Source: an uncultured Thermoleophilia bacterium
Lineage (GTDB): Bacteria; Actinomycetota; Thermoleophilia; Solirubrobacterales; 70-9
Length of the DNA: 64,000 bases
NCBI GenBank assembly: GCA_963756745.1
Contig: CAVWOU010000001.1
Location: forward strand, 151,531-215,530
Direction: 5' to 3'
The notes under the pieces were generated by a model. The model saw nothing but the letters and a program-made list of their open reading frames with translations, was not told the DNA's origin and made no database searches. This document shows, piece after piece, positions 10,777-41,058 of the stretch (position 1 is the stretch's first letter; each line of letters opens with the position of its first letter). The position numbers and the translations under genes are program-made.

Positions 10777-10788
10777 CCCATCACCTCA

Positions 10789-10854
10789 GTTCGCGCTCGG
10801 CCCACCATCAAATTCCCCGCCCGGGCGGGATCTTGGAATCCGCCTCGCGCTCAC
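10789..10854 (-). repeat. Copy 2 of the ~66-nt intercistronic element (tadB-tadC junction)
   Basis: gttcgcgctcggcccaccatcaaattccccgcccgggcgggatcttggaatccgcctcgcgctcac. The tadB stop codon (10851-10853) lies inside its first bases. GAGGTGA and the tadC ATG follow it. Confidence 0.85.
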
Positions 10855-11723: not shown

Positions 11724-11725
11724 CG

Positions 11726-14625: not shown

Positions 14626-14634
14626 GATTTACGC

Positions 14635-15612
14635 ATGGTCGACCTGGTCGCCACGACGGGGGACTCGGTGGTGCGCCTGGCCGCTGGAGATGGATGGTCC
14701 GTGAAGACGCTTCTGGAGGACGGTGGCGCGCAGTGCGTCGCCACCGACCCGCGCGTGCCGGCGCGCGTGTACGCCGGCTCGCGCGGACGTGGCGTATGGC
14801 GCAGCTCGGACGGCGGCGATCAGTGGGAGGACGCCGGGCTGCCGGCCGACGACGTGTTCTCTATCGCGGTCAGCCCGGCAGACGGCGCCGTGTACGCCGG
14901 CTGCGAGCCGAGCATGCTGTTCCGAAGCACCGACGGGGGAACGAGCTGGGAGGAGCTCTCCTCGCTGCGCGAGATTCCGTCGGCGCCGAACTGGAGCTTC
15001 CCCCCGCGGCCGTGGACGTCGCACGTCCGCTGGATCGCGCCGAGCCCGCACGACGCCGCCCGCCTGCTCGTCGGAATCGAGCTCGGCGGCGTGATGCTGA
15101 GCGAGGACGGCGGCTCGACGTGGAAGGACCATCGCCCGGGCGCACAGCCCGACTGCCACGCCCTCGCGTGGCATCCCGAGGCGGAGGGCCGCGCCTACGA
15201 GGCCGCGGGAGGTGGTGCGGCATGGAGCTCCGACGCGGGCGAGACGTGGCGGGGCGCCGACGAGGGCCGCGATCGCCACTACACGTGGGCACTCGCCGTC
15301 GATCCCGACGAGCCCGAGCGGTGGTTCGTCTCCGCGAGCCCCGGGCCGATGCAGGCGCATGGGTCGCGCAGCGCCGAGGCCCATCTCTATCGCTGGGAGG
15401 GTGAGGGCCCGTGGGAGCGCCTCACCGAGGGTCTACCCGATCCGCTCGACTCGATGCCGTACGCGCTCGCGTTCGCAGGCGACTCGCTCGTCGCCGGGCT
15501 GGCTGACGGGCGAGTCTTCCTTAGTGATGACCGCGGCGCACGCTGGGCACCGATAGCGCTCGACGGCGCGGGCCTCGGGAGGATCGCGGCGCTGGCGCCG
15601 CTCCCCCGATAG
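14635..15612 (+). CDS. BNR/Asp-box repeat beta-propeller protein (Ycf48/sialidase-like fold)
   Basis: Five S-x-D-x-G-x-x-W type boxes: SSDGGDQW, STDGGTSW, SEDGGSTW, SSDAGETW, SDDRGARW. Confidence 0.75.
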   Translation: MVDLVATTGDSVVRLAAGDGWSVKTLLEDGGAQCVATDPRVPARVYAGSRGRGVWRSSDGGDQWEDAGLPADDVFSIAVSPADGAVYAGCEPSMLFRSTDGGTSWEELSSLREIPSAPNWSFPPRPWTSHVRWIAPSPHDAARLLVGIELGGVMLSEDGGSTWKDHRPGAQPDCHALAWHPEAEGRAYEAAGGGAAWSSDAGETWRGADEGRDRHYTWALAVDPDEPERWFVSASPGPMQAHGSRSAEAHLYRWEGEGPWERLTEGLPDPLDSMPYALAFAGDSLVAGLADGRVFLSDDRGARWAPIALDGAGLGRIAALAPLPR

Positions 15613-24911: not shown

Positions 24912-25961
24912 GTGCGAGTAAGCCTCCAACTGATTCCCGAGCAGCCGGTGGAGCAGCTCGCCGATGCAGCGGCGCTCGCCGACGAGCTCGGCTATTACGC
25001 GTGCTACAGCGCCGATGAGATCTACCACAAGGACGCATGGGTGCTGCTCGGCGGATTGGCTGCTCGGACGGAGCGGGTCCGGCTCGGGGTCTGCGTCAGC
25101 TCGATCTACATGCGCGAGCCCACGCACGTCGCTCAGCTCGCGGCGACGCTGGATGAAATGAGCGGGGGTCGCGCCGAGGTCGTGTTCGGCATCGGCAACA
25201 TCGCGATGCTCAAGCAGTACGGAGTGGAGTGGCGAGGCACCCGACCGATCGCACGCCTGCGGGAAGCCCACCGCGTGATGCGTGCTCTGCTCGACGAGGG
25301 CTCGATCGACTTCGCCGGCGATTTCTACTCCTACAAAGGCGTGACCACGGCGAGCCGACCGACCCAGGAGCACCTGCCGCTGAAGATCGGAGCGATGGGA
25401 GGCCCGAAGTCGATGGAGCTGGCCGGCGAGATCAGCGACGGCATGCATACGGCCGTCGCCTACTCGACCGAGGCGCTCGAGTACGCGGTCGGGTGCTTTC
25501 GAGCGGGTGCCGAGCGGGCCGGGCGGGACGCCGCGTCCCTCGACATCGGCGACTCGCTGCTCGGAGCAATAGCACCCGACGGTGATGTTGCGCGGCGCGC
25601 CGGTCGGATCCTGGCTTCCTTCTACATCCCCTCCATGCCACCGGCGCTGCTGCAGCGACAAGGAATCGCGCTCGACGAGGTCGCCCCGGTGACCGCGGCG
25701 TTCGATCGCGGCGACGTCCGGGGGGCGCTCGAGGCGACACCCGACGCCTTGGCCGAACGCATCATGCTCGCCGGCACGCCCGACGACTGGGTGCGGTGGC
25801 TTACGGAGAGCTACGCACCGGCTGGGCTGAACCACGCACTGCTCTCGTTCACCGATCCCTTCACCCTCGAGTCCTGGGCGGGCCGAGAGGTCGCTGGCCT
25901 ACCAAATCTGATCGAGCAGGTGCGTCTGGTGGGCGAGGAGGTTCTGCCGAAGCTCGACTGA
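24912..25961 (+). CDS. Luciferase-like (LLM-class, probably F420- or flavin-dependent) oxidoreductase
   Basis: 349 aa. LADELGYYACYSADEIYHKD...LDEMSGGRAEVVFGIGN is a typical LLM pattern. Confidence 0.8.
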   Translation: MRVSLQLIPEQPVEQLADAAALADELGYYACYSADEIYHKDAWVLLGGLAARTERVRLGVCVSSIYMREPTHVAQLAATLDEMSGGRAEVVFGIGNIAMLKQYGVEWRGTRPIARLREAHRVMRALLDEGSIDFAGDFYSYKGVTTASRPTQEHLPLKIGAMGGPKSMELAGEISDGMHTAVAYSTEALEYAVGCFRAGAERAGRDAASLDIGDSLLGAIAPDGDVARRAGRILASFYIPSMPPALLQRQGIALDEVAPVTAAFDRGDVRGALEATPDALAERIMLAGTPDDWVRWLTESYAPAGLNHALLSFTDPFTLESWAGREVAGLPNLIEQVRLVGEEVLPKLD

Positions 25962-25979: not shown

Positions 25980-27869
25980 TCACGGCGGCAGGCGGCGCCG
26001 ATAGACGAAGAAGCCTGCGGCGAGGGCGACGGCGAGCAGGCCGAGAGCGCCGAGCGCGAGCTGGGTGTCGGTCGGAAAGTCGCCGTCCTCAGACGATGTG
26101 GGCTGGCCGACGGGAACGATGGCCTCGGCGGGGTGGCCGGATGCGGACTCGTCCTTGCCGCCGGACTGCGGGCCACCGCTTCCGTCCCGCTGATTGGCCT
26201 CGGCACCTTTTGCGGTGCGCTCACCGCCCTCGCCATTTCGGGCCGCCCCGTCACCGCCACCATCGCCGCCGCCTCCGGCACCGCTCGCGCCGCCCGAACC
26301 GGGCGCGCGCGGGACGGCCGCAAGCGGGAACGTCTCGCGGCTCGCGGCGACCAGCACCTGGCCGGTGACCCACACCGGGGTCTGGTCGCTCGACGCCGAG
26401 TAGCTGTAGTGCCCGTCCGACGCCTGCCGGGCGCGGAGATACTCAAACGGATCGTGGCCGGCCTCGGTGACCGAGCCGGGATCGCGTCCCGCGGCGAGCA
26501 GACCCTGGATCGCCCACGCGGTCGACTGCGAATTTGTCGGGCCGCTGTCTGCGAGCGCCCACCCGCCGTCGCGCCCCTGTGCGCGGCTCAGGTAACGCGA
26601 CCCGTCGGCAGCCGCCTGTCCCCCGCGCCCCGCCGCGGCGAGCGCCTGGAGCGCCGCGCCTGTGCTGTCGGACTCGCTCGGCTGGTCGGGCTGGTAACCC
26701 CACCCTCCGTCCCCGTTCTGCCCCCTGCGAAGCCACGCCGCCGAGCGCGACAGCGCGAAGCCATCTGCTCCCGCGGCTCGCAGGGCGAAGATCCCAAACG
26801 CGGTCAGGTTGACCTGCCCCTGGAAAGAGCCGTTGCCCATACGCCGCGCGCGCAGCGCGGAGACGAGGTCGCGGCCGCCGAACTCGCGCGGGCTCACGCC
26901 GGCGCCTGCGAGCGCGAGGATCGTGCGCTCGAGATCGCCGGTCGAGCGGACCTTCTCGGCGTTGGCGCGCAGGTAGGCGACGGGGTTCTCGCCGCCCGCG
27001 TCGAGGTCGAGCGGGTTGAGGCCCGCCGCCTCGAGGCCGAGCATCGCCCACCCCGTCATCGCGGAGCTCGACGATCCGCCAGGCGCGGTCCCGAACCCGC
27101 CGTCGTCGTTGCGCGCGTCCTGGAGCCAGCTCCGCGCCTTCCCCGCGGCCGCGGCCTTCGCCTGCGCCGCGGCCGAAGCATCCGCGGCTCCGGCCGGCGC
27201 GGCGAGGATCAGGACGGCGCCGCCCGCCGACAGTACGACCAGCGACGCCGTCGCGACGCGCTCGCGCCACCTGAACTCGCACCGCTCGCGGAAGCGCGCG
27301 AGCATCCGGACAAGCGCCGGGCCGGCGACGAGCGCGAGCACGATGTTCCCCGCCGCATGAGCGACGTTGAACGGGATGCCGCGAGCCGAGAGCGCCAGGT
27401 AGCGGTCGAGCGACTGCTCGCCGCCGTACGTGACCATGACCGAGAGGTCGAGCAGCGCGCCGTAGCCGAGCCCGGCGATTCCGCAGGCGAGCGCCAGGCC
27501 GATCCTCCCGAGGCGGCGGCCCGTTGCGGCGGCAAGCACGGCGCCGCCGATCCCGACCACCCCCCACCCCGCCATCTGCCACGGCGTCCACGGACCCTGC
27601 CCGAGCCAGAAGTTCGAAACCAGCGCCGCGAGCGCTCCCACAACGAAGCCCGGGCCGCCGCCGATCGCGTAACCCGTGAACAGGACGATGTCGGTCGTCG
27701 CGACGACGTTTGGGATCGGCGCGAGGACCAGCCGCCCGGCGACCGCGAGCGCGGCGAGCGCCGCGACCAGGGCGATGATCCGCGACGACGGGCGCGAGCG
27801 CTCGTACCACGCGAACCCCGACGCGATCACGAGCACGAGGATCGCGAGACTGGCCGCCTGCCAACTCAT
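25980..27869 (-). CDS. ECF S-component-like membrane domain fused to an extracytoplasmic prenyltransferase/terpene-cyclase-like alpha/alpha-toroid domain, Gly/Ser-rich linker and C-terminal TM anchor
   Basis: About 7 predicted TM helices in residues 1-230. Then repeats such as DDGGFG, GNGSFQG, GDGGWGYQ, RDGGWAL, SDGHYSY. The end reads LALGALGLLAVALAAGFFVYRRR. ATGA overlap with the ecfA stop. Confidence 0.75.
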   Translation of the reverse strand: MSWQAASLAILVLVIASGFAWYERSRPSSRIIALVAALAALAVAGRLVLAPIPNVVATTDIVLFTGYAIGGGPGFVVGALAALVSNFWLGQGPWTPWQMAGWGVVGIGGAVLAAATGRRLGRIGLALACGIAGLGYGALLDLSVMVTYGGEQSLDRYLALSARGIPFNVAHAAGNIVLALVAGPALVRMLARFRERCEFRWRERVATASLVVLSAGGAVLILAAPAGAADASAAAQAKAAAAGKARSWLQDARNDDGGFGTAPGGSSSSAMTGWAMLGLEAAGLNPLDLDAGGENPVAYLRANAEKVRSTGDLERTILALAGAGVSPREFGGRDLVSALRARRMGNGSFQGQVNLTAFGIFALRAAGADGFALSRSAAWLRRGQNGDGGWGYQPDQPSESDSTGAALQALAAAGRGGQAAADGSRYLSRAQGRDGGWALADSGPTNSQSTAWAIQGLLAAGRDPGSVTEAGHDPFEYLRARQASDGHYSYSASSDQTPVWVTGQVLVAASRETFPLAAVPRAPGSGGASGAGGGGDGGGDGAARNGEGGERTAKGAEANQRDGSGGPQSGGKDESASGHPAEAIVPVGQPTSSEDGDFPTDTQLALGALGLLAVALAAGFFVYRRRLPP

Positions 27870-29533
27870 GCGCCCTCCGCCAATGGGCGTTCCGTCGGGC
27901 GCAGCAGCGCCGCGCCCTGCTCCGGCGTGATCGCGCCGTCGACGTCGAGGATCCGTGCGACCTCGGTCGCGAAGTACCACCCGCCCGACAGCACCTCGGC
28001 GATCAGCCCGTCGGCGATCAACTCGCCCTCGCCGAGCAGCACGGCGCGCTCGGCGAACCCGGCCGCGAACTCGACGTCGTGGGTCGCGACGACGATCGCC
28101 GTCCCCGACGCCGCGAGCTCGCCGATGCGCTCCGAGAGCTCCTGCTTGCGCGCGCGATCCATTCCGCGGGTCGGCTCGTCGAGGCAAACGAGCCCCGGTG
28201 GCCCCTCGTCCGCGCCCCGTCCCGCCATCACGATCGCGAGCGCGAGGCGCTGGCGCTCGCCGCCGGAGAGGTCGCGTGGGTCGGCGTCGCTCGCCCACGC
28301 GAGGCCGACCGCGTCGAGGGCGCGCGCGCCCGCTTCGGCGGGCAGCTCCTCGACGACACGCTCGTGGACGAGGAAGTCGTCCGGGCTCTGCGACAGCAGC
28401 GCGCACCCACGGGGCGCGGCGACCCGGCCGCGAACCGGCTCGACGATCCCGGCCGCGGCGCGAAGGAGGGTGCTCTTCCCGGCGCCGTTCCGCCCCATCA
28501 GCGCCACCCGCTCGCTCGCGCCGATGGCGAGATCGATTCCCCGAAGCACGTCGCGCGAATCGAGCTCAACCCAAAGATCTCTCACCTCAAGAGCGGGCGG
28601 CGCCGGGGTCACGCGATCCGGCGGCTTCAGACGGGGCGCCGAAGGCGCCACGTCTGGTGCGACGAAGTCGCCGCCCGGGCGCGTGACTGCCGGCGCCGCC
28701 CGCCGCGCAAGCGCCTCGCGAGCCTCGCGGACCCCGACCGGCACCGGGCGCAGGCCGGCGAGGTCGAACAGGCGCGCCCCTGGGGTCGCAAGCGCCTGGT
28801 CGCTGCCGAGCGCCCACTCCAGGAAGCGGCCGGGTGCGCCGTCGAAAGCGATCGCGCCGTCGCGCATCGCGACCGCCCGGTCGGCGGCGCCGAGGCAGCG
28901 CTCGAGTCGGTGCTCGCACACGATGACGGCCATGCCCCACTGCTCGTTGAGGCGGCGCAGCAGCCAAACGAGCTCGTCGCCGGCGACGGGATCGAGCTGC
29001 GAGGTCGGCTCGTCGAGCAGGACCAGAGGCGGCCGCGCGACGAGCGCCGCAGCGAGCGCGACCCGCTGGAGCTCGCCGCCCGAGAGCGTGTCGGTGGTGC
29101 GCTCGAGGAGGTCGGGGATCGCGAGCGCCAGCGCGACCTCCTCGACGGCGCGCGCGCGCCGCGCGGCCGTCTCGCCGCGTAGCTCGAGCGGAAGCCCGAT
29201 CTCGGCGCGCACCGTGGTCGAGACGATCTGCGTCTCGGGGTCCTGCGCCACGAACCCGACGACGCCGGCGAGCTCGGCGGGCCCGCGCTCGCGGACGTCG
29301 AGTCCCGCCACCTCCACACCACCGGACACCTCGCCTCCGTGGAAGTGCGGGACGAGCCCGCACGCGGCGCGCAGGAGCGTCGACTTGCCCGATCCCGAGC
29401 GCCCGGCGAGCACGACGAACTCCCCCGCGTCGACCGCGAGCTTCACGCCGCCGAGCGCGTCGCGGTCGGCGTTCGGATAGCGATAGCTCAGATCCTCGAT
29501 CTCCAGCACGCGGCTGTCGACGCGGTCAGACAT
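27866..29533 (-). CDS. ecfA: ECF transporter ATPase, fused tandem EcfA1-EcfA2
   Basis: Two ABC cassettes. Walker A GRSGSGKST and GRNGAGKST; signatures LSGGELQRV and LSGGERQRL. Confidence 0.9.
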   Translation of the reverse strand: MSDRVDSRVLEIEDLSYRYPNADRDALGGVKLAVDAGEFVVLAGRSGSGKSTLLRAACGLVPHFHGGEVSGGVEVAGLDVRERGPAELAGVVGFVAQDPETQIVSTTVRAEIGLPLELRGETAARRARAVEEVALALAIPDLLERTTDTLSGGELQRVALAAALVARPPLVLLDEPTSQLDPVAGDELVWLLRRLNEQWGMAVIVCEHRLERCLGAADRAVAMRDGAIAFDGAPGRFLEWALGSDQALATPGARLFDLAGLRPVPVGVREAREALARRAAPAVTRPGGDFVAPDVAPSAPRLKPPDRVTPAPPALEVRDLWVELDSRDVLRGIDLAIGASERVALMGRNGAGKSTLLRAAAGIVEPVRGRVAAPRGCALLSQSPDDFLVHERVVEELPAEAGARALDAVGLAWASDADPRDLSGGERQRLALAIVMAGRGADEGPPGLVCLDEPTRGMDRARKQELSERIGELAASGTAIVVATHDVEFAAGFAERAVLLGEGELIADGLIAEVLSGGWYFATEVARILDVDGAITPEQGAALLRPTERPLAEGA

Positions 29534-30392
29534 CCGCGAACGGGAAGACCGCGATCAGCGGCAGGGCGGCGGCGACTGCCATCGTCGCTGCGTCAACATC
29601 CAGTGTCACTTCCGGATACGGGTCGAACCCGCCGGCGCCGGCAAGCAGCCCGGCGACGCCGCAGGCGCCGATTGCGACGCCCGCAGCGACGAACTTCCAG
29701 TCGTGGCGCGAGCGCCTCGAGCGTTCCGCCGGTGCGCGCACGCCGAGCGCGTAGCCGCGGAGCTCGAGCGTCGCGGCGACGTCCATCGCGCGATCGAGCG
29801 AGCCGGCCACGAGCCTGCGGGCGAGGGCCGCCCTGCCGGCCGGCGCGGCGCCGGGCCCCCGCAGGGCGGCTGCTTGGCGCAGCCGACCGAGGTCGCCCGC
29901 CGCGACCGGCACGAGGCGCGAGACGAGCGTGGCGGTGAGCGCGGAGCGCCGCGCGAGCGGTCGGACGACGCGCAGGACGCGGTCGGGATCGACGCACGCC
30001 GACCACACCGCGAACGCCATCGTCACGACGAGGATCCGCTCGGCGAGCACGGCGCCGGCGGCCAGCGATTCGAGCGTTACGTCCATCGGCCCGAGCGCCG
30101 GGACGTCGTACCCGCGCACGAGCACCGTGTCTCCCCGGTCGGTAACGAGGGCGTTGACGACGACGATCGTCGCGCCGAGCCAGACCCCCCATCGAACCGA
30201 TATGGCCAGCGCCGCGCGCGCGCCGGCCGCGAGCCCCGCTGCGGCGACCGCCACGCCGGCCCCCCCGAGCACGATCGGGTTCGAGTAAGCGAAGGCCACG
30301 AGCACGAGCGATCCGAGGTACAACGCGGCCGCTGAGACCGAGGCGCCCTGGAGCCGGCCGCGGCGGGGCGTGTAGGCGAGCGTCGTGCGCAT
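29526..30392 (-). CDS. ecfT: ECF transporter transmembrane (T) component, CbiQ/EcfT family
   Basis: 288-aa polytopic protein with Arg-rich coupling segment (ATLVSRLVPVAAGDLGRLRQAAALRG). 8-nt overlap with the ecfA start. Confidence 0.85.
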   Translation of the reverse strand: MRTTLAYTPRRGRLQGASVSAAALYLGSLVLVAFAYSNPIVLGGAGVAVAAAGLAAGARAALAISVRWGVWLGATIVVVNALVTDRGDTVLVRGYDVPALGPMDVTLESLAAGAVLAERILVVTMAFAVWSACVDPDRVLRVVRPLARRSALTATLVSRLVPVAAGDLGRLRQAAALRGPGAAPAGRAALARRLVAGSLDRAMDVAATLELRGYALGVRAPAERSRRSRHDWKFVAAGVAIGACGVAGLLAGAGGFDPYPEVTLDVDAATMAVAAALPLIAVFPFADV

Positions 30393-30399
30393 CGCGGCC

Positions 30400-31359
30400 T
30401 CAGCCCCGGCCCCCCTCGCCGGTCACCGGGAGCGCGAACTCGTCACGCTCGTCGACGCCGACCGCGTAGTGGTCGCGCAGGGAGTCGGCGTCGAGCAGCT
30501 CGGTCGCGGCGTCGACGCCCGCCTCGTCGGTGCCGGTCACGACCCAGGTCGGCTGCTCCTCGCCGAGCCGCACCGCGGCGACGAGCCCCTCGCTTTCGCC
30601 GTGCCCGCTCCGAAACGCGTCCCGGTCGGCCGGGTCGAGGGGCACCAGGTCGTAGCCTCCGGCGGGCGCGGGCTCGAAGTCCGCGTACACCCCGCTCTGC
30701 GCCGGGCCGTCCTCGATCTGTACGGCTGCTTGGTCCTGGCGCACGGCCTCCCACGGGCCCACCACGACCCGCAACAGCTCCTCGCCGAGCTTCGCGCGCT
30801 CGGTCGAGATGCTCGCCGGGACCCCTTCCTCCTCGAGCCGGTCGGCGACCGCCGAGCAATCGTCATCCTCGCCGAGGCAGTCAATCCTGACCGGGAACGC
30901 CTTCCCCTCCGACCCGTGGACGAAAGGCTCTGGCCACGACCCGACCACCGCCGGGGCGCGCATCGCCTCGCTCCAGTCGCGGTAGTCCCACCACACCCGA
31001 TCGCCCCCGTACACGCGCGTCTCGGCGGCGCCGACCGACGACTCAATGCCGTTGACGAAGAAGAACCAGTCGAAGCGGCGATCGCCGCGCTCGGCGCTCT
31101 CGAGCCCGTCGATCGACTGCACGAAGCCTCCCCCGTAGCGCGTGGTGATCTCGGCCTCGCTGTCCAGGAACCGCATCACAGTCTCCGACTCAGGCGGGTC
31201 GGTGAGAGTCGCGTCGACCAGCCGCTGGGATCCAAAGTCGCGCGTGACCGCAAGAGTCGCCTCCCCGTCCGAGGAATCTCCCGGCCCGAAGCCGCAGCCC
31301 GCTACAGCGGCGGCGGAGAGGACTGCCGCCGCCGCCACGAGACCACGGCCTCCATTCAC
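30400..31359 (-). CDS. Lipoprotein with N-terminal DUF4430 (transcobalamin beta-domain-like) domain
   Basis: Lipobox AAAVAGC. GGGFVQSIDGL...DWFFFVNGIESSVGAAETRVYGGDRVWWDY. Start GTG 31359 (AAGGAG RBS, GTGA overlap with the upstream stop). Confidence 0.8.
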   Translation of the reverse strand: MNGGRGLVAAAAVLSAAAVAGCGFGPGDSSDGEATLAVTRDFGSQRLVDATLTDPPESETVMRFLDSEAEITTRYGGGFVQSIDGLESAERGDRRFDWFFFVNGIESSVGAAETRVYGGDRVWWDYRDWSEAMRAPAVVGSWPEPFVHGSEGKAFPVRIDCLGEDDDCSAVADRLEEEGVPASISTERAKLGEELLRVVVGPWEAVRQDQAAVQIEDGPAQSGVYADFEPAPAGGYDLVPLDPADRDAFRSGHGESEGLVAAVRLGEEQPTWVVTGTDEAGVDAATELLDADSLRDHYAVGVDERDEFALPVTGEGGRG

Positions 31360-32360
31360 TTCTCCTTGACCCTCTCGCACGCACGCACGGTGTCGTCCGG
31401 GTCGACCACCGCGAGGTCGCGCTTGCCGGTACCGCAGTTGATCCGGTCGGGGAACCCACCGCGTGCTTTCACGCGGTCGTTGCGCGCCTTCGCCTTGATC
31501 CTGTCGGCGACCTCGGTGCCCTTGATCTTGTCGGGCCTACGGGTGCCGGCGATCTCCTGCTGCGGCGCGCAATCGCTCGCCGACCCGGCGACGCAGATCG
31601 AGACCTCATTCGAGGGGATGTCGGCACCGCGCGTCGCCTGCAGGGTCGCCTTGCCGGTCCCGAGCGCGACGGTCGCCCGGCCCTGCGCGTCGGTGGTCGC
31701 CGGCGAGCTGCCTCCGCTCACTGTCGCGCCGGCCGCGGGCGTCTGGGTGCCGTCATCTGCGTACTCGATAGCCCGCACCTCTACCTGGCTCCCGTGGTCG
31801 GCCAGCGGCGGCGCCTCGAGCCCGAGCTCGGGCGGATACGGGAACGTCGGCGCGAGGTACCACAGGATGTTGTCGCCCTTCGCGACCACGAGCTGGTCGC
31901 CCCCGACCTGGGCGCCGGCATGGTTCTGCTTCAGGTACCAGGACTCGGAGCCCTGGGCCTGGAAGCCGCCGATCCCGCAGACGCCGAGCCCGAAGTCGAA
32001 CGCGTCGGTGACCGACAGCGGCCGCAGCTCACGCGCGGTCGCGGAGCCATCCTGGACGAGCCCCAGCGCGGTCGGCCCGGCGATCGTGACCGGATTGCCG
32101 CTGCCGCCAGTGCCGGGGCCGAAGCACAAGGCGTTCGGATCGGTCGGTACCTGCTCGCTTCCGGTGTACTGGACGAGCTCGGCGAGCGTCTCGCCCGACG
32201 GGCCGACGACCCGGAGGTCGGCGCCGAGCGTCTTCACCTTGGCGCCGGCGATCGGGGGAACGGCGAGAAGCGCTGCGACTGCGCACGCGACGATCAGCCC
32301 GCGCGGCCTACGTAGGGACCCTATTGGCATCGAAGCCACCCTTTCCTCGAGGGTTTGCAT
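31356..32360 (-). CDS. Secreted protein: DUF4430-like domain, Ig-like domain and RTX-like Cys-containing tail
   Basis: Signal peptide LIVACAVAALLAVPPIAGA. SWYLKQNHAGAQVGGDQLVVAKGDNILWYLAP. Tail DKIKGTEVADRIKAKARNDRVKARGGFPDRINCGTGKRDLAVVD. Confidence 0.65.
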   Translation of the reverse strand: MQTLEERVASMPIGSLRRPRGLIVACAVAALLAVPPIAGAKVKTLGADLRVVGPSGETLAELVQYTGSEQVPTDPNALCFGPGTGGSGNPVTIAGPTALGLVQDGSATARELRPLSVTDAFDFGLGVCGIGGFQAQGSESWYLKQNHAGAQVGGDQLVVAKGDNILWYLAPTFPYPPELGLEAPPLADHGSQVEVRAIEYADDGTQTPAAGATVSGGSSPATTDAQGRATVALGTGKATLQATRGADIPSNEVSICVAGSASDCAPQQEIAGTRRPDKIKGTEVADRIKAKARNDRVKARGGFPDRINCGTGKRDLAVVDPDDTVRACERVKEK

Positions 32361-32364
32361 GGCT

Positions 32365-32540
32365 CGGCCGGAGCAGGTCTCCTGGCTTCCGGGATGAGCG
32401 CCGCGCCTTCCCAGGGCGACTGGTGGCCGCCCAAGTGGCTGACAGCGCGTCGTGCGACGCTCCCTTACCCGGTCACAGTGGCGGGACCGCGCCGGTCTTG
32501 CACCGGACTTCCCTGGGCCACCGGCCGTATGTGGCCGGGG
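32365..32540 (-). promoter_or_regulatory. Cobalamin (B12) riboswitch
   Basis: Minus strand GGUGGCCCAGGGAAGUCCGGUGCAAGACCGGCGCGGUCCCGCCACUGUGACC (core, revcomp of about 32471-32521). B12 box AGCCAGGAGACCUGC (revcomp of 32373-32387), 13 nt before the ATG at 32360. TATAGA -10-like hexamer at about 32541-32548. Confidence 0.9.
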
Positions 32541-32566: not shown

Positions 32567-32953
32567 TCAGCCCTTGTGGGCTTCGACCTGCTTGCGAAGC
32601 GCCTCGACCGTCTCCGGCGCGTCGCGCCTCATGGTGCCGAGCTCCCAGCTCGCGATCTTGATCACACGCAGCGGGGATGTCGCGATCACGCTCGCCGAGC
32701 GCTGCTCTCCCTCGAGCAGTGCCTGCTCGCCGAAGATGTCGCCGGGCCCGAGATCCGCGAGGTGCTGGCCGTCGCGCTCGACCTTCGCGGTGCCCTCCTC
32801 GATCGCGTAGAAGTCGTTCGCGTAGCCTCCCTCCTTGACGACTGCCGCCCCTTCGGGGTGGGACTCGAGCTGGGCGAAGGTCGCGACCTTCTTCAGCGCG
32901 TCGTCCGGCACGTCGTGGAACAGGGGAATGCCCTTGAGCTGGCTGACGTCCAC
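32567..32953 (-). CDS. Stand-alone cyclic-nucleotide-binding domain protein
   Basis: 128 aa. IPLFHDVPDDAL...GDIFGEQALLEGEQRSASV is the cNMP-binding phosphate-binding-cassette pattern. Confidence 0.85.
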   Translation of the reverse strand: MDVSQLKGIPLFHDVPDDALKKVATFAQLESHPEGAAVVKEGGYANDFYAIEEGTAKVERDGQHLADLGPGDIFGEQALLEGEQRSASVIATSPLRVIKIASWELGTMRRDAPETVEALRKQVEAHKG

Positions 32954-35548: not shown

Positions 35549-36036
35549 AAGCCCTCGAGGTCGGGGAGGAAGTCGTGCACGACCGGGTAGCCGGGCGGGA
35601 CGGCCTCGACCTCGAGCAACGTCTTGCACCCGGGGCAGAAGTACTCGCGCAGGTGGTTCCAGTCGGGGTCGCCCGACATCTTCTCCGGGTAGATCTCGTG
35701 CAGCGATTCGTCGTCATCGCGCACGTTGATCAGCGCCTCGAGCTTCCAGTTCTCGCGGTAGTCGCCGAACTCGTGCCCGCAGTCGCACTTGATGACATAC
35801 CTAACACCGGACCCTGCACCACCCGTCGGCGGCTCTTGGCCGCCGGCGGCCACGATGTTTAGATGCTCGCCGAACGGGAGCACGATCGGCTCGTCCCACT
35901 CGACCCGCTCCTGGAGCAACGCGACGTACTGGTCGAACCGGCCGGGGTCCTTGTAGGAGGACTGGATCGCCCGCACCTGGGAGCGCGGAAGGCGCTCCTC
36001 GACGAGGTCGCGAAGCGTCTCGTCGTCGAGCTTCAC
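35512..36036 (-). CDS. acxC: Acetone carboxylase gamma subunit
   Basis: 174 aa. Zn-type Cys pairs IKCDCGHEF and FCPGCKTLLEVE. Follows the alpha subunit with an ATGA-type overlap. Confidence 0.8.
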   Translation of the reverse strand: MKLDDETLRDLVEERLPRSQVRAIQSSYKDPGRFDQYVALLQERVEWDEPIVLPFGEHLNIVAAGGQEPPTGGAGSGVRYVIKCDCGHEFGDYRENWKLEALINVRDDDESLHEIYPEKMSGDPDWNHLREYFCPGCKTLLEVEAVPPGYPVVHDFLPDLEGFYSEWLGRELPR

Positions 36037-38351
36037 TGTTCCGCGTCGCGACCACCCGGCCGCGACGGAGTGAAAGACGACGTCGCGACCGGCCCTGATT
36101 CGTCGGCGAGCAGCGTGCGCGTCAGCTCGACGGTCGGGGTGGCGACGTCGAAGTCGAAGTCCTCCGGCAGGTCCCAGAACTCGCGGAACTCACGCGCCCA
36201 GCTGTCCGACAACCGGATCGACTCCGCGTACATCCTCTGCACCGGCTCGATCATCTCGCCGTCGAGCAGTCGCTGGCGCTCGCCCCGCATCCACTCGCGC
36301 ACAGGGACCGCCTTGCGCCCGCGCTCCTCGCGCATCTCGGCTCGGCGCGTCACGCTGGCGTCGGGGTCGCCGGGGACCACGCCGTACACCGAATCCGCGT
36401 ACCGCGGCAGCAGGTACTCGCCCTCGATGTCGGCCATCACCGACTCGTACGGTCGCTCGAGCGCATCTCCCACGCCGGCGGCGCCGCGGAACATGCACAG
36501 GTAGAGGTCGCCCTGTCGCATCACCTCGGGCAGGGTGGTGGTCTCGAGGTCGAACTGGCGCTCACCCTTGACCATCCGCTCGAGCGCGGAGTCCGCGGGG
36601 TCGGGGTCGTGGGTCGGGAACGGCTCGCGGCGCTCGACGAGGTCGAAGAAGTTGGTGTTGCGCACGTTGTGCCGGTACCCGGTCGCGGCGGGGTACCCGC
36701 CCCACAGCCCCGTCTGGATGAACATCCGCCCGTTGCCGATGTTCTGCATCTCGTAGAACGGCGTCTTCCAAGCGAGCCGCAGCGCCTCGTAGCCCGAGCC
36801 GCCGCGGTGCCGCCCCGGCCCCGCCGTGTTCGGCTTCACGCGCTGGCCGATGTAAAGGAACGGTTCGATCAGCTCCCACATCTCCATGTCGCCCATGTCG
36901 CCCTCGGGATTCCACATCGCCGCGGCGTAGTCGAGCCCGTCGAGGATCATCTTCCCCCCGCCCCCGACGCACGAGAGCCCGAAGTTGGTCGTTGCCGACT
37001 GCTTGCCGTACTGGTCGATGCCGCCGCCCTGGAACGCGTTGCTCGTCAGCCCGTAGGGCGCCAGCACCTCCTCGACGAACCCGCGCGCCTGCAGAGCTCG
37101 CGACACCGACTTGATGAAGCCCATGAACGAAGGAATCAGGAACGCCCACGCGATCCCGGTCGAGGCCTGCGGGTTGGAGTGGTTGGTCCACGTCCCGGGC
37201 GGGAAGTTGGTGTTGAGGCCGAGGTAGGCGCCGTCGTTGACCTTGTCGTTCGGGATCAGCGTCTGGGTGAGCTGGACCCACACCGCTCCCTGCATCGCCG
37301 ACGGCGTGCAGTTCGAGGAGTGGTATCCCCACGACGACGCGCCCTCGTAGTCCATCTCCAGCTTCGCGTCGCGCGTGACGCGGATCTCGACCGGCGCGTG
37401 CATCATCGTGTCGACGCGCGCGTACGAGGGAAGCTGCTCCTCCTTCGCGAACGCGTTCTCGGTGAACGCGGGGGCCCGGTAACGCCCCGGGATCAGCATC
37501 TCTCGGACGCGGCTCTGGAACGAGCGCCGCCCGTCCTCGATCACCTCGCGGATGAACCGCTTGTAGGAGTCGATCCCCTCCTCGAGGATCACCCGCTCGA
37601 CCGACTCGCGGGCCATGTGGCAACCGGCGATGCGCGTCTTCTCGTCGAGCGTCCAGTACATCGGCGTCCGGGTCCCCTTCAGCCCGGCGAGGACGTGGTC
37701 GCGCCACAGCTCGTCGTTCGAGCCGATCTTCTTCGCCGGCAGGTCGATGCCGTCCTCGTAGCGGGCGATCGGCCCGACCGGCACCGAGCCCGGCGTCTTC
37801 GCGCCGATGTCGATCTCGTGCGTCACCCCCGCTGCCCATCCGACCAGCTCGTCCTCCCAGAAGATCGGCACGATCGTCTGCACGTCCGCGTTGTGGACGT
37901 CGCCGATCATCGCGTCGTTGTTCGTGAAGATGTCGCCCGGGGCGATCCCCGGGTTGTCCTCGTAGCCCTGGCGGATCATGTACTTGATCGCGTCGGACAT
38001 CGTGTGGACGTGGACGATGATCCCGGTCGAGAGCGCGACCGAGTCGCCCTCCGGCGTGTAGAGCGCGAAGCTGAGCTCGCCGATCTCCTTCACGATCGGC
38101 GAGGCGGAGATGTTGAGCGCCGTCTCGCGCGCGCTGACGAGGCCGCCGCGCAGGCGTGAGAACAGCTTCTCGAACCGGATCGGGTCGCTTTCCTTCAGCT
38201 CGAGCGCGTCGATCCCCCAGTAACGCCCCGTCTCGGCGAACTGCCGCTCGGACTCGAGCAGCATCTCGCGCGCGGTGCGCCCCTCCCAGCCAATCGCCGA
38301 CGCCTGCTCCGCCAGTGGCTCGAGCTCCCGTGTCCGGTCGACGATCGCCAT
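36033..38351 (-). CDS. acxB: Acetone carboxylase alpha subunit (hydantoinase B/oxoprolinase family)
   Basis: 772 aa from MAIVDRTRELEP. NISASPIVKEIGELSFALYTPEGD, GDIFTNNDAMIGDVHNADV. Confidence 0.85.
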   Translation of the reverse strand: MAIVDRTRELEPLAEQASAIGWEGRTAREMLLESERQFAETGRYWGIDALELKESDPIRFEKLFSRLRGGLVSARETALNISASPIVKEIGELSFALYTPEGDSVALSTGIIVHVHTMSDAIKYMIRQGYEDNPGIAPGDIFTNNDAMIGDVHNADVQTIVPIFWEDELVGWAAGVTHEIDIGAKTPGSVPVGPIARYEDGIDLPAKKIGSNDELWRDHVLAGLKGTRTPMYWTLDEKTRIAGCHMARESVERVILEEGIDSYKRFIREVIEDGRRSFQSRVREMLIPGRYRAPAFTENAFAKEEQLPSYARVDTMMHAPVEIRVTRDAKLEMDYEGASSWGYHSSNCTPSAMQGAVWVQLTQTLIPNDKVNDGAYLGLNTNFPPGTWTNHSNPQASTGIAWAFLIPSFMGFIKSVSRALQARGFVEEVLAPYGLTSNAFQGGGIDQYGKQSATTNFGLSCVGGGGKMILDGLDYAAAMWNPEGDMGDMEMWELIEPFLYIGQRVKPNTAGPGRHRGGSGYEALRLAWKTPFYEMQNIGNGRMFIQTGLWGGYPAATGYRHNVRNTNFFDLVERREPFPTHDPDPADSALERMVKGERQFDLETTTLPEVMRQGDLYLCMFRGAAGVGDALERPYESVMADIEGEYLLPRYADSVYGVVPGDPDASVTRRAEMREERGRKAVPVREWMRGERQRLLDGEMIEPVQRMYAESIRLSDSWAREFREFWDLPEDFDFDVATPTVELTRTLLADESGPVATSSFTPSRPGGRDAEQ

Positions 38352-38352
38352 C

Positions 38353-40512
38353 TCAGCTCCTCTCGCTCTCCCGGGTCTCCAGGTGGAAGATCCGGTTGCC
38401 ATCCAGTCGCGCGGCGCGGCCCGGCGGGACCGCGAACGTGTCGGCTGGCGATTCGATGATCGCAGGCCCCTCGACCACGTGCCCGGCCCGCACATCGCCC
38501 TGCTCAAAGATCGGCGTCTCGGTCCAGCCTCCGTCCCACCACACATTCCTTCGCCCCTTCGGCTCCGGCGCCCCCGAGACCGGCTCCTCGTCCGGCAGTG
38601 CCGGCTTCTCGACGTCGACTGCGCCGGTGACGATCACGTTCGTCACCAGGTATCCGAGCTCGGGGGAGCGCGCCGCGCGCGCGTAGAGCTTCCCGTAGGC
38701 GTCCTCGAACGCCGCGATCAGGTCGTCCACCTGCGCCGCCTCGCTCAGCTCCTCGTGTGGCGAGAGGATCTCGAGGTCGTTGAGCTGGCCCATGTACTGC
38801 ATGCGCACGTATCGGCGCAGCTCGATCCGGTCCTCGGGGACGCCCGACTTCGCGAACTCCTCGACGACCTTCTCGCGCAGCATCTCCCATCCGCCCGCGA
38901 TGTAGATCCCGAGCCCCGCCTTGACGTCATCGTCGGCGCCCGGCTCGACCGGCATGTCGATCGTGAGGTCGTAGCGGTACGCGAAGTCTCCGCACGCACA
39001 GCCGAAGGCGGAGAACCCCGCCGCCCATGCCGGGACGAGGACCTCGCGATAGGGAACGTCGCGCGTGTAGCCGGCGGCGTGCAGCGGGCCGCCGCCCCCG
39101 TAACACAGGAGCGTGTAGTCGACCGGCGAGTAGCCCTTGCCGAGCACCTGCGCGACCGCCTCGTACTTGAGCGTCTCGTCGAACAGCTCCACGACCCCGG
39201 CCGCGGCCTCCTCGACGGAGAGCCCGAGCGGCTGGGCGATCTGCTCGCCCACCGCGGCGCGCGCCCGCTCGGGGTCGAGTTTCACCTCGCCGCCGAGGAA
39301 GTAGTCGGGGTTGATCCGTCCGAGGACGAGGTTGAGGTCGGTCACCGAGGGTGTCTCGAGCCCCGACTCCGGCCACGACACGCCGATCGCGGCGCCGGCC
39401 GAGTCCGGCCCCAGGTCGGGTCGCCCCGAGTTGGGGTCGATGCGCACGAATGAGCCGGTCCCGGCGCCGATCGAGTCGACCTGGACGAGCGGGATGTTGA
39501 GCAGGAATCGCCCCACGTCAGAAATCTGGCGGATCGCGAACTCGCCGTCGGTGATCAGCGCGATGTCGAAGCTCGTCCCGCCGATGTCGGTGCAGACGAT
39601 GTTCTGGGAGCTCCCGGAGTCGATCCGGTCGGCGAGGTAGCGCGCGCCGATCACACCGCCGATCGGCCCCGAGATCAGCGTGCGCGCGAGCTCCTTGGCG
39701 TCGATCGAGATCGTCCCGCCGTGGGCGGCCATTATCCGCAGGTCGAACTTCGCTCCGGACTCGCGGGTCGCGTCGCGCACCTTGCGGAGCTGCTCGCGCG
39801 AGGGCGCGGCCGCGTAGGCCTCGACCAGGGTCGAGTTGAGACGCGGGAAGTCGCGCCGCATCGGGTACAGGTCGGACGACAGGAACACCGGGAGCTCGGG
39901 CGCCAGCTCGCCCGCGATCTCGCGGATCCGATCCTCGTGCTGGGAGTTTCGGTAGCTGTACAGGAGGTTGACGACGATCGCCTCCACACCGGCCCCGGCG
40001 AGCTCGGTGACCGCGGCGCGCGCCTCGTCGTCGTAGAGCGGGATCGCCTCCTCGCCGAACATGTCGACCCGACCCCGCACCCCGCGGATCAGCTCGCGCG
40101 GGACGAGCGGCTCGTTGTGGAAATGGGTCGCGACGTGGAGCCGGTCCGAATACGGGTAGCCCAGGTAGGTCTGGATCCCGCGCTCGAGGCGCAGCATGTC
40201 CTCCATGCCCGCGGTCACGATCAGACCCACGCGGCGGCCCTTGCGCTCGAGCAAGCGGTTGAGCATCGCCGTGCCCGAGTAGATCCCCGAGACGACCTCG
40301 GGCAGGGCGCCCGTGGGTTCCAGCCCCCAGTGGGCGAGCGCGTCGCGGGTCGAGCTCATGAATCCGACCGACTCGTCCTCCGGCGTCGTCTGCGCCTTGC
40401 CGACGACGAACTCGCCCGAGCGGTCGACGATGAACGTGTCGGTCATCGTCCCGCCGGCGTCGATCGCGAGCACCCGCGGTTGGCGGGAATCCGGGCCTCG
40501 TTCACGCGACAC
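38353..40512 (-). CDS. acxA: Acetone carboxylase beta subunit (hydantoinase A family)
   Basis: 719 aa. VLAIDAGGTMTDTF, VCTDIGGTSFDIALI. Confidence 0.85.
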   Translation of the reverse strand: MSRERGPDSRQPRVLAIDAGGTMTDTFIVDRSGEFVVGKAQTTPEDESVGFMSSTRDALAHWGLEPTGALPEVVSGIYSGTAMLNRLLERKGRRVGLIVTAGMEDMLRLERGIQTYLGYPYSDRLHVATHFHNEPLVPRELIRGVRGRVDMFGEEAIPLYDDEARAAVTELAGAGVEAIVVNLLYSYRNSQHEDRIREIAGELAPELPVFLSSDLYPMRRDFPRLNSTLVEAYAAAPSREQLRKVRDATRESGAKFDLRIMAAHGGTISIDAKELARTLISGPIGGVIGARYLADRIDSGSSQNIVCTDIGGTSFDIALITDGEFAIRQISDVGRFLLNIPLVQVDSIGAGTGSFVRIDPNSGRPDLGPDSAGAAIGVSWPESGLETPSVTDLNLVLGRINPDYFLGGEVKLDPERARAAVGEQIAQPLGLSVEEAAAGVVELFDETLKYEAVAQVLGKGYSPVDYTLLCYGGGGPLHAAGYTRDVPYREVLVPAWAAGFSAFGCACGDFAYRYDLTIDMPVEPGADDDVKAGLGIYIAGGWEMLREKVVEEFAKSGVPEDRIELRRYVRMQYMGQLNDLEILSPHEELSEAAQVDDLIAAFEDAYGKLYARAARSPELGYLVTNVIVTGAVDVEKPALPDEEPVSGAPEPKGRRNVWWDGGWTETPIFEQGDVRAGHVVEGPAIIESPADTFAVPPGRAARLDGNRIFHLETRESERS

Positions 40513-40770: not shown

Positions 40771-40912
40771 AGGCACCTCTCTTTCTCGTGCCTACGGGGT
40801 TAGCTGTCGGGCTCGCGCGAAAGAGCTGCGCTACCGGATTCTCCTATCGGATTCGCCCCAGGGCCGTCAAGCCCTTGCTCACCGGCAAGTTCGCCTCTTG
40901 CCGACGACCACC

Positions 40913-40936
40913 GGCAAATTCGCTCGCGAATTTGCC
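40913..40936. promoter_or_regulatory. 24-nt near-perfect palindrome in a 270-nt noncoding stretch
   Basis: GGCAAATTCGC-TC-GCGAATTTGCC, preceded by a half-site-like direct repeat CACCGGCAAGTTCGC. Confidence 0.4.
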
Positions 40937-41058
40937 GCGTGATCCTGGGTCCCCCGCTCCCCGGCTCAGACGGCCGGGGACTCGGCAGGTTGCATCGCGG
41001 GAACCTTATAGCGTCGTGCGGCGAGATTGCAAGCAAGCGCTAATGACCCGCCGCGGGG

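Follow-up and report, generated by a model that had tools for sequence, protein, structure and literature searches.

A putative CbrT-type ECF corrinoid importer behind a cobalamin riboswitch, with DUF4430 accessory proteins and an alpha/alpha toroid fused to its S-component

On the transporter side, the closest described system is ECF-CbrT of Lactobacillus delbrueckii, a functionally characterised vitamin B12 ECF transporter whose structure is available as 6FNP; the article devoted to it names cobinamide among the reagents (Santos et al. 2018, PMC5997447), and presents characterised ECF transporters as needing no extracytoplasmic binding protein. Capture of B12 at the cell surface is known from Bacteroides, in which the lipoproteins BtuG, BtuH and BtuJ feed BtuB (PMC8941943, PMC10404256). 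Mammalian transcobalamin (TC), intrinsic factor (IF) and haptocorrin join an alpha6/alpha6 toroid and a DUF4430 beta domain on one chain, the TCN proteins bearing DUF4430 at their C-terminal end (PMC4350170). The operon described here brings together an ECF module, a fusion of its S-component to a toroid, a cobalamin riboswitch and a set of DUF4430 accessory proteins, and no published account of such a system was found in the literature.

The window, that is to say the whole stretch of 64,000 nucleotides that was analysed, comes from an uncultured Thermoleophilia bacterium; the host is a soil actinobacterium. Five genes (g1-g2-g3-g4-g5) follow one another on the minus strand, adjacent genes overlapping or abutting, with the riboswitch directly ahead:

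32375 to 32514, minus strand: cobalamin riboswitch aptamer, RF00174 (66.2 bits, E 3.9e-14)
31356 to 32330, minus strand: g1, secreted accessory protein with a signal peptide, 324 aa
31851 to 32228, minus strand: DUF4430 / transcobalamin-beta-like domain of g1 (fold match and family hits)
31581 to 31829, minus strand: Ig-like domain of g1
31365 to 31559, minus strand: RTX-like Ca-binding repeats of g1 (weak RTX matches)
30400 to 31380, minus strand: g2, lipoprotein, 326 aa (lipobox VAGC, Cys29 at 31294-31296)
30982 to 31185, minus strand: DUF4430 domain of g2 (PF14478, E 2.6e-12, 47.5 bits against a cut-off of 23.8)
29526 to 30392, minus strand: g3, EcfT (CbiQ family) transmembrane scaffold, 288 aa (PF02361, E 6.2e-10)
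27866 to 29533, minus strand: g4, fused EcfA-EcfA' ATPase, 555 aa (two ABC_tran domains, PF00005, E 4e-44)
25980 to 27869, minus strand: g5, 629 aa (ATG overlapping the stop codon of g4)
27270 to 27869, minus strand: g5 residues 1-200, CbrT-like ECF S-component (phmmer)
27177 to 27269, minus strand: g5 residues 201-231, Arg-rich cytoplasmic stretch and extra hydrophobic helix TM7, RFRERCEFRWRERVATASLVVLSAGGAVLILAAPAGA
26325 to 27176, minus strand: g5 residues 232-515, single alpha/alpha toroid of the class II terpene-cyclase/prenyltransferase superfamily (SQHop_cyclase_C, E 1.6e-13)
26664 to 26675, minus strand: remnant DxDD motif E399-S400-D401-S402 (motif alignment)
25980 to 26324, minus strand: g5 residues 516-629 and stop, Gly/Ser/Asp-rich disordered linker, then C-terminal transmembrane anchor

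A luciferase-like gene (24912-25961, plus strand) and a cNMP-binding gene (32567-32953, minus strand) flank the operon and, since they are convergent or unrelated, the unit is taken as 25980-32514, in essential agreement with the extent given in a preliminary description of this DNA. The analysis confirmed the five-gene composition that description had listed: a secreted DUF4430-like protein, a DUF4430 lipoprotein, EcfT, a fused EcfA1A2, and an S-component-like domain followed by a toroid (SQHop_cyclase/Prenyltrans, E 1e-13). The g1-g2-g3-g4-g5 order is kept in every genome locus with sufficient sequence, the position of g3 is conserved in all loci, and gene order and riboswitch are retained together in 70/70 informative Solirubrobacterales loci. 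At least 592 species genomes encode the S-component/toroid fusion. As to gene limits, the g1 reading frame extends to an alternative upstream ATG at 32360, most homologues beginning at Met 32330 and being mostly 324 aa long; an 808-aa frame in the mechanical listing was rejected as g5, being an upstream extension of the 629-aa gene.

The cobalamin riboswitch, likewise claimed at the outset, scores above the RF00174 gathering score of 31.5. Read directly in the sequence, its B12 box AGCCAGGAGACCTGC is the exact reverse complement of 32373-32387, and the core GGTGCAAGACCGGCGCGGTCCCGCCACTGTGACC is present. The alignment spans model positions 45-169 of 189 here and 1-189 in the orthologous loci, and the 5' stems probably reach to about 32560. 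Upstream of g1, RF00174 is found in all 70 of the informative orthologous loci. For the expression platform, a terminator-like site was sought and none found, the fold being unremarkable.

The genes for EcfT and the double ATPase are translationally coupled, and g4 matches ECF_ATPase_1 at E 8e-72 and ECF_ATPase_2 at E 2e-67. The S-domain of g5 finds CbrT (6FNP_A) at E 8.3e-15, residues 30-199 aligning with 10-178, and no other S-component in the PDB is matched; there is also a weak match to ECF-ribofla_trS, and the model is a helical bundle of only moderate confidence. This domain is homologous to a characterised B12 S-component, and the core is therefore read as a dedicated CbrT-type ECF corrinoid importer. 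That the system imports a corrinoid is very probable.

Beyond the S-domain, the g5 chain runs through a low-confidence flexible linker (pLDDT <50 at residues 197-229) and the extra transmembrane helix with its positive-inside flank, after which comes the toroid (pLDDT >90, no cysteine in the domain). TM7 would take the chain outside, the toroid being predicted to be extracytoplasmic. In the linker that follows, residues 527-599 again have pLDDT <50; residues 601-625 form the anchor, a helix in the model with an RRRLPP tail, and the C-terminus weakly resembles a GVDTG-CTERM sorting signal (NF058571, 21 bits against a cut-off of 29).

The toroid had been put forward as one half of a transcobalamin rebuilt in pieces. 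This idea is supported for the beta-domain fold of g1; it is not supported for the toroid, whose detectable likeness to the TC alpha domain ends at the generic alpha/alpha-toroid fold. No cobalamin binder is among its 50 best Foldseek matches, which comprise class II terpene cyclases and prenyltransferase beta subunits together with a few toroids of glycosidase type. The best of all are the single-domain cyclases 8PAK (TM 0.62 normalised to the target) and MstE. The family profile reaches squalene-hopene cyclase at E 2.5e-44 and, with hits allowed up to E 10, finds no chain of TC, IF or haptocorrin. PF01122 is matched just once, over 32 residues of a distant relative with several toroids, and the score of 21.5 bits falls short of the cut-off of 25. 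The state of the cyclase motif, set out next, also tells in part against the idea of a transcobalamin in pieces.

Could the toroid then be an active enzyme on the outer membrane face, using a conserved Asp for acid catalysis while import still proceeds through the CbrT-like core? Its substrate would be a corrinoid before import, for instance for ligand removal or exchange, or an isoprenoid lipid. Besides the profile and fold matches, an alignment places the g5 motif opposite the catalytic DVDD of drimenyl diphosphate synthase, and of 41 toroids of types A and B at least 95% keep D401, the residue at the catalytic position. Together with the intact DxDD in 109/119 members of a paralogous sister clade, this Asp hints at chemistry over passive binding, and one relative has a PAP2 phosphatase domain added after the toroid. 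Against this, the window clade keeps the catalytic Asp but its motif as a whole has decayed to [DE]xDS, 119/120 members having Ser at the fourth position; prenyl diphosphates are not expected at an extracytoplasmic site, and no isoprenoid gene lies within or beside the operon. Every toroid context examined, the DxDD-intact clade included, is under B12-riboswitch control and linked to DUF4430, and we know of no corrinoid chemistry for the class II terpene-cyclase-type toroid fold. An enzymatic toroid is thus unlikely; that it takes part in binding rather than in another role is a tentative proposal, with somewhat less than even chances.

Sister operons show how these domains are shuffled. L082, a paralogous operon with about 45% identity, likewise carries all five genes and is preceded by an RF00174 element of its own; a NicO-family metal transporter and a FUR-family regulator lie just downstream. 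In another sister operon (L081), also with RF00174 ahead and adjoining a PduO-type cobalamin adenosyltransferase gene, the toroid sits not on the S-component but on a g1-like DUF4430-Ig protein, downstream of a signal peptide. This natural DUF4430-Ig-toroid fusion argues that the parts are tied together functionally.

The DUF4430 assignments are of unequal directness. That of g2 is clear, and its C-terminal region of about 190 aa is conserved, with two invariant Cys among the conserved columns; a sequence search of the PDB with this part gave no match. In g1 the window protein itself stays sub-threshold (17 bits against the cut-off of 23.8), but 24/36 family members match DUF4430 (best 3e-08); HemolysinCabind is matched by 16/36 and CarboxypepD_reg by 3/36. 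The predicted fold concurs: the AF2 model (pLDDT 87.8) finds its top PDB matches, at marginal E-values (1.6e-3), in the beta domains of haptocorrin (4KKI), transcobalamin (7QBG and 5NO0) and intrinsic factor (2PMV). Also among the best is 3U7Z, a DUF4430 structure from a bacterium that was deposited under the name "putative metal binding protein". DUF4430 had been called the transcobalamin beta-domain family, and the g1 matches agree with the literature in this (PMC4350170). By sequence profile, neither g1 nor g2 reaches TC, IF or haptocorrin in the PDB. Among the g1 fold matches, the DUF4430 domains of known ligand belong only to cobalamin-binding proteins solved with cobalamin (4KKI and 2PMV), and g1 and g2 are fairly likely to bind corrinoid.

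The accessory proteins might instead be structural, anchoring, spacing or protecting the ECF complex or aiding its assembly, leaving B12 capture to the CbrT-like S-domain by itself, as happens in Lactobacillus. By the account cited above (PMC5997447), characterised ECF transporters do work without an extracytoplasmic binding protein; the RTX-like repeats and Ig-like domain of g1 are typical of surface-layer or adhesin proteins, and g5 ends in a sorting-signal-like anchor. Such a role, which we consider improbable, leaves unexplained why two different proteins have a B12-binding beta-domain fold, and why DUF4430, toroid and S-component are shuffled among chains yet always stay together behind a B12 riboswitch. 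Cobalamin riboswitches also govern cobalt and precursor transporters. A substrate that is B12-related without being a complete corrinoid (cobalt, a lower-ligand precursor or another tetrapyrrole), with DUF4430 proteins as metal or small-molecule binders, would suit the 3U7Z annotation and the L082 neighbours, but is less likely still, given that CbrT, rather than cobalt components of the CbiM/CbiN type, is what the S-domain resembles, that the g1 matches of known ligand are cobalamin binders, and that the adenosyltransferase beside L081 acts on imported corrinoid.

The favoured reading is that of a dedicated ECF importer of the CbrT type (group I) that takes up cobalamin or related corrinoids and probably has an extracytoplasmic layer to capture them. 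Once intracellular coenzyme B12 drops, the riboswitch would be unliganded and the operon switched on. Secreted g1 and lipoprotein g2 would bind scarce corrinoid at the cell surface through their transcobalamin-beta-like DUF4430 domains. The toroid would sit directly above the transporter, since it is covalently fused to the S-component through the extra helix and has a second, C-terminal anchor, and could serve as docking and hand-over partner, possibly closing over the corrinoid jointly with a DUF4430 domain. The CbrT-like S-domain would then receive the corrinoid, with EcfT and the fused ATPase powering the transport cycle of that domain; the order of hand-over between accessory proteins and S-domain is itself inferred. 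S-components are thought to topple within the membrane, and two extra anchors could hinder this, which counts against the favoured reading.

Among known systems, NF053823 ("SCO2321 family membrane protein") groups actinobacterial toroid proteins that are anchored and stand alone. The similarity covers part of the toroid core, at 109.7 bits, far under that family's cut-off of 300. No assigned function is implied by its name, and the sole literature mention of SCO2321 is unrelated. Class II terpene cyclases (squalene-hopene cyclase, drimenyl diphosphate synthase, 8PAK, MstE) belong to the same superfamily by profile and fold, and the middle Asp of their DxDD is retained here, but the motif is otherwise degraded and the toroid, joined to a vitamin S-component, has a predicted extracytoplasmic location and no isoprenoid gene context. 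Like BtuG, BtuH and BtuJ, the accessories would be surface-exposed, riboswitch-linked proteins, with the proposed task of collecting cobamides and delivering them to a transporter. Their folds are unrelated, the BtuH paper mentioning neither DUF4430 nor transcobalamin, and they would act at an actinobacterial cytoplasmic membrane on an ECF transporter rather than on a TonB-dependent transporter in the outer membrane of a diderm.

With transcobalamin, intrinsic factor and haptocorrin the system shares the PF14478 beta-domain family in g2 and g1, the g1 model matching their beta domains best, and an alpha/alpha toroid, carried on one chain with DUF4430 in sister operons. It differs in that no detectable sequence similarity, and no preferential match of fold, links its toroid to the TC alpha domain, in that the parts are on separate membrane-tethered chains, or in beta-Ig-alpha order when fused, and in that delivery would be to an ABC-type importer and not to an endocytic receptor.

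The architecture had been said to match no characterised system. This stands for the accessory layer, absent from ordinary ECF transporters and the only uncharacterised part here, and not for the core, which matches ECF-CbrT (PMC5997447): the S-domains are homologous over their whole length (E 8e-15), both systems have EcfT and two ATPase domains, and the presumed substrate is likewise cobalamin or cobinamide. Whereas CbrT is a free S-component of 182 residues using a general ECF module shared with others (group II), the S-component here is encoded with its own EcfT and fused EcfA-A' (group I), continues on the same chain into a seventh helix, a toroid predicted to lie outside and a further anchor, and stands in one operon with two DUF4430 proteins and a B12 riboswitch.

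The minus strand of the window encodes, behind a cobalamin riboswitch, a probable ECF-type vitamin B12 importer. The core of such a transporter is already known; what is new is the conserved, uncharacterized and presumably extracytoplasmic module that this CbrT-type importer carries. The riboswitch and the five genes of the operon, g1 to g5, are arranged as follows:

32375–32514, minus strand: cobalamin riboswitch RF00174 (Rfam, 66.2 bits against a gathering score of 31.5, E 3.9e-14)
31356–32330, minus strand: g1, secreted DUF4430 protein (ORF up to 32360; the second Met is the start in most homologues)
30400–31380, minus strand: g2, DUF4430 lipoprotein (PF14478)
29526–30392, minus strand: g3, CbiQ/EcfT
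27866–29533, minus strand: g4, fused EcfA-A′ (two ABC_tran domains, ECF ATPase models)
25980–27869, minus strand: g5, S-component plus toroid (SQHop_cyclase and Prenyltrans), whose ATG overlaps the g4 stop (ATGA)

The five genes follow one another without significant gap, with neighbors overlapping at start and stop codons. For g5, an 808-aa ORF was rejected in favor of the 629-aa form, which has the ATGA overlap with g4 and agrees with all homologues. The limits of the operon are set by a convergent luciferase-like oxidoreductase gene on one flank and a cNMP-binding protein gene on the other, so the unit extends over 25980–32514.

The riboswitch precedes the first g1 ATG by 14 nt and the likely start by 44 nt. 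Its match is local, covering model positions 45–169 (orthologues span 1–189), but the B12 box can be read directly at 32373–32387 and the conserved core is also found. Scanning of the leader revealed neither a terminator-like site nor a promoter, and its minimum-free-energy fold is unremarkable, with a z of −1.2. Judging from the RF00174 element itself, g1–g5 would be under ligand-dependent control.

A second riboswitch and a tRNA pair are found elsewhere in the window:

40774–40997, minus strand: c-di-AMP (ydaO-type) riboswitch RF00379 (Rfam, 69.6 bits)
38353–40512 and 36033–38546, minus strand: hydantoinase/oxoprolinase A and B subunit ORFs (domain matches)
54606–54680 and 54733–54816, minus strand: adjoining tRNA-Glu(CTC) and tRNA-Leu(CAG)

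The RF00379 element stands about 260 nt upstream of the two subunit genes. Riboswitches of this class are more usually placed before cell-wall, potassium or osmolyte genes, and a hydantoinase/oxoprolinase target looks unusual.

The transporter core is made of g3, g4 and the first part of g5. The g3 product matches PF02361 (CbiQ/EcfT, E 6e-10), and g4 contains two PF00005 domains recognized by the ECF ATPase models TIGR04520 and TIGR04521 (E about 1e-70). EcfT, two EcfA ATPase domains and an S-component are thus encoded together, which is the arrangement of ECF group I. The S-domain of g5 is not a free S-component of about 180 residues; it is fused to TM7, the toroid and an anchor. CbrT, reportedly named by Rodionov et al. 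in 2009, falls in the generic family PF12822 and has no dedicated curated model. Among PDB chains, g5 residues 1–200 match the 182-residue CbrT chain of 6FNP, which is the structure of ECF-CbrT, a vitamin B12 transporter from Lactobacillus delbrueckii (phmmer E 8.3e-15; PMC5997447); all other S-component structures fail to match at E up to 1. The alignment runs end to end (residues 30–199 against 10–178 of 182), and the two proteins have in common the motifs IPNV..TD, SN..LG.G.WT and HAAGN. Since its S-domain matches CbrT, the core is, by homology, a CbrT-type ECF importer, and the S-domain probably transports cobalamin or cobinamide. The preliminary description had placed the riboswitch, its box and core, and the five-gene operon correctly, as is clear from the Rfam score, the directly read positions and the Pfam and NCBIfam matches of g2–g5 (the DUF4430 domain of g1 being below threshold). 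Its statement that the architecture matches no characterized system does not hold for the core, which matches ECF-CbrT.

The first two genes encode the DUF4430 proteins. In g2 the domain is unambiguous (PF14478, 47.5 bits against a threshold of 23.8, E 2.6e-12) and the lipobox Cys29 is nearly invariant. In g1 it scores 17 bits, below the same threshold of 23.8, but 24 of 36 g1 orthologues match PF14478 (best E 3e-08). The AlphaFold2 model of g1 (pLDDT 87.8) has three beta-rich parts, the DUF4430 domain being followed by an Ig-like (CarboxypepD_reg) domain and then by RTX-like Ca-binding repeats. Its best Foldseek matches in the PDB are haptocorrin (4KKI), transcobalamin (7QBG_C and the rat protein), the isolated transcobalamin beta domain 5NO0 (TM 0.66 normalized to the target), intrinsic factor (2PMV and 3KQ4) and a Ruminococcus gnavus DUF4430 structure, 3U7Z, all with marginal E-values of 1.6e-3 and weaker. 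The link of g1 and g2 to transcobalamin and intrinsic factor comes from the Pfam model and the fold search; single-sequence and HMMER profile searches with both proteins found nothing relevant among the transcobalamin and intrinsic factor chains of the PDB. This kinship of fold suggests that the DUF4430 domains of g1 and g2 may bind cobalamin.

Other parts of these two proteins deserve mention. The RTX-type repeats that close g1 (31365–31559, minus strand) give weak matches to the RTX blocks of CyaA and lipase; HemolysinCabind is detected in 16 of 36 family members, and a g1-type protein of the sister clade (230 aa) has no such repeats. The C-terminal region of g2 (30400–30980, minus strand, about 190 aa) is well conserved, with invariant C168, C175, W210 and W279. 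Searches of Pfam, NCBIfam and the PDB give no match for it; a LacI-like hit at E 0.19 is not significant.

The AlphaFold2 model of g5, built with 40 homologues, contains a single alpha/alpha toroid of very high confidence (residues 232–515, pLDDT >90). Its S-domain is helical and modeled with moderate confidence, a linker rich in Gly and Ser is disordered, and residues 601–625 form a C-terminal helix. Because an Arg-rich stretch and a hydrophobic helix come after the S-domain and the last helix is followed by RRRLPP, the toroid would be extracytoplasmic, with a membrane tether at either end. A sister protein agrees with this topology, since there a cleavable signal peptide precedes the same toroid. 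The C-terminal anchor (25983–26069, minus strand) consists of the hydrophobic helix and RRRLPP, preceded by the Gly/Ser/Asp-rich linker. It matches the GVDTG-CTERM sorting-domain model weakly (21 bits against a cut-off of 29), and some g5 homologues are labeled MYXO-CTERM by JGI; possibly a dedicated sorting enzyme acts on the anchor.

What is the origin of this toroid? Its Pfam matches (PF13243, E 1.6e-13; PF13249, E 6e-09) and its fold are those of the class II terpene-cyclase toroid. The 50 best Foldseek matches in the PDB are class II terpene cyclases (8PAK, with E 1.9e-07 and TM 0.62, drimenyl diphosphate synthase, squalene-hopene cyclase and MstE) and beta subunits of prenyltransferases, besides a small number of toroids of the glycosidase type, with no cobalamin binder among them. 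A family profile built from 48 diverse relatives finds squalene-hopene cyclase at E 2.5e-44 among PDB chains; at E up to 10 it reaches none of the chains of transcobalamin, intrinsic factor or haptocorrin. PF01122 is likewise missing from the window toroid at E up to 10. One of the 48 relatives, the 1505-aa multi-toroid PKD protein P0314, gives a PF01122 match of 21.5 bits over 32 residues, which was discarded as below cut-off. The toroid is thus transcobalamin-like at the level of the general fold only, and the alpha-then-beta order on one polypeptide is not found in the window, where the two halves are on separate chains. Of the two halves of a transcobalamin first proposed from the sequence, the beta half is borne out by the PF14478 match of g2 and the fold matches of g1, whereas for the alpha half the resemblance amounts to an analogy and does not demonstrate kinship.

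Such an ancestry raises the possibility that the toroid is catalytic. In a local alignment, for which the internal repeats of the toroid permit an alternative register, the window motif E399-S400-D401-S402 (S-E-S-D-S-T-G) stands opposite the catalytic S-D-V-D-D-T of drimenyl diphosphate synthase, so that an intact DxDD is lacking. The motif [DE]xDS, with Ser in fourth position, is kept in 119 of 120 close homologues (P0001–P0120). In the paralogous clade (P0391–P0508), [DE]xDD is intact in 109 of 119 members. The middle Asp (Asp401; motif site 26664–26675, minus strand) is conserved throughout both. Two toroid clades linked to B12 riboswitches therefore differ by one fixed motif residue. Since the toroid has no cysteine in residues 232–515, a prenyltransferase-type zinc site is excluded, the farnesyltransferase-type site needing a Cys ligand. 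The NCBIfam SCO2321 family model NF053823 is matched over partial stretches with 109.7 bits against a cut-off of 300. In favor of catalysis are the invariant Asp401, the intact DxDD of the sister clade and one relative, P0350 (816 aa), in which an S-component, a toroid with a DVDDTAA motif and a C-terminal PAP2 phosphatase domain form one chain, a hint that some versions of the system may carry out chemistry on phosphate esters. With the DxDD of the window toroid broken, a catalytic role seems unlikely here.

The system is widely conserved. For the g5 fusion protein 6985 homologues were detected, and at least 592 species-representative genomes encode the fusion; essentially all of them come from Solirubrobacterales, Conexibacteraceae and other Thermoleophilia MAGs, in a survey of close relatives whose range is set by the search patterns. 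The order g1-g2-g3-g4-g5 is kept in the 80 fetched loci wherever the contig is long enough. Rfam finds RF00174 in all eight loci tested, and a profile made from these eight detects it immediately before g1 in all 70 loci covering the region, the other ten loci being contigs that end before it. No plasmid-borne annotated relatives were found by tblastn. With the toroid alone as query, an exhaustive search yields 4766 clusters at 50% identity, of which 370 have an E-value no higher than 1e-30. Some relatives have three or four tandem toroids: P0278 (1786 aa), P0314 (1505 aa), and P0342, P0345 and P0377 (about 920 aa); P0278 and P0314 also contain several PKD domains.

Sister operons show how the parts can be rearranged. 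Two Rosetta-stone proteins, P0362 and P0405, combine the toroid with DUF4430 and CarboxypepD_reg on one secreted chain. Their operon, at locus L081, comprises RF00174, the fusion in the order beta-Ig-alpha, a 287-aa anchored protein, EcfT, EcfA-A′ and a stand-alone S-component. Directly after the S-component gene, on the opposite strand, L081 has a PduO-type cob(I)alamin adenosyltransferase gene (14241–14804), and a SAM riboswitch (1386–1495) lies upstream of a PALP-family and ThiS gene pair. The paralogous operon at L082 has the five-gene layout, 41–54% identity to g2–g5, its own RF00174 and an intact DVDD motif. About 0.7 kb downstream of it, FUR-family regulator and NicO-family metal transporter genes (10494–12305) may be a cobalt/nickel link, or a coincidence. 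DUF4430, toroid and CbrT-like S-component are thus shuffled among polypeptides, yet always kept together under B12 control, and this is the strongest argument for a shared ligand. That the accessory proteins are instead structural appears doubtful beside such re-fusions. Cobalt or a precursor as the substrate is the least probable of the alternatives, the S-domain being matched end to end by a B12 transporter.

Speculatively, Solirubrobacterales might possess a “split transcobalamin,” in which a DUF4430 protein and a terpene-cyclase-derived toroid close on corrinoid at the cell surface and load a tethered CbrT-like S-domain. In the best-supported account, the unliganded riboswitch would allow the operon to be expressed when coenzyme B12 is low. 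Outside the cell, corrinoid would be bound by g1, which is secreted, and by g2, which is lipid-anchored, through their DUF4430 domains. The toroid would serve as docking or hand-over partner, its two tethers keeping it above the transporter. The S-domain would then take the ligand, cycled by EcfT and EcfA-A′.

In the current description, ECF transporters need no extracytoplasmic binding proteins, the membrane-embedded S-component being the sole high-affinity binder (PMC5997447). The conserved, riboswitch-controlled system of the window differs in that its S-component carries a large domain predicted to lie outside the cell, and in that two further proteins have the beta fold known from B12 binding; if these accessories bind substrate, that picture must be revised. 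Such binding would also mean a bacterial function for DUF4430 and a non-cyclase role for the terpene-cyclase-type toroid, and would reveal how Solirubrobacterales scavenge B12. The split transcobalamin, if real, would be the first case of an ECF transporter equipped with an extracytoplasmic module for substrate capture, and a prokaryotic precedent or convergent twin of mammalian B12 carriers with their toroid-plus-beta architecture. Ready-made experiments are provided by the sister clades with DxDS and DxDD and by the natural domain re-fusions. Public databases annotate the homologues in generic terms ([quoted passage not shown] “ECF substrate-specific component,” “hypothetical protein”), and no description of the accessory proteins was found in the full-text literature covered, which lies mostly outside the subscription journals.

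Compared with known systems, the core is homologous to ECF-CbrT of Lactobacillus and alike in its working, but the window operon has its own EcfT and fused double ATPase (group I). The beta domains belong to the C-terminal family of transcobalamin, as found in transcobalamin, intrinsic factor and haptocorrin. The toroid is a member of the terpene-cyclase/prenyltransferase superfamily, although it lacks the DxDD of the cyclases. Finally, BtuG and BtuH of Bacteroides are unrelated in fold and serve another type of transporter, but their logic of capture at the cell surface is similar.
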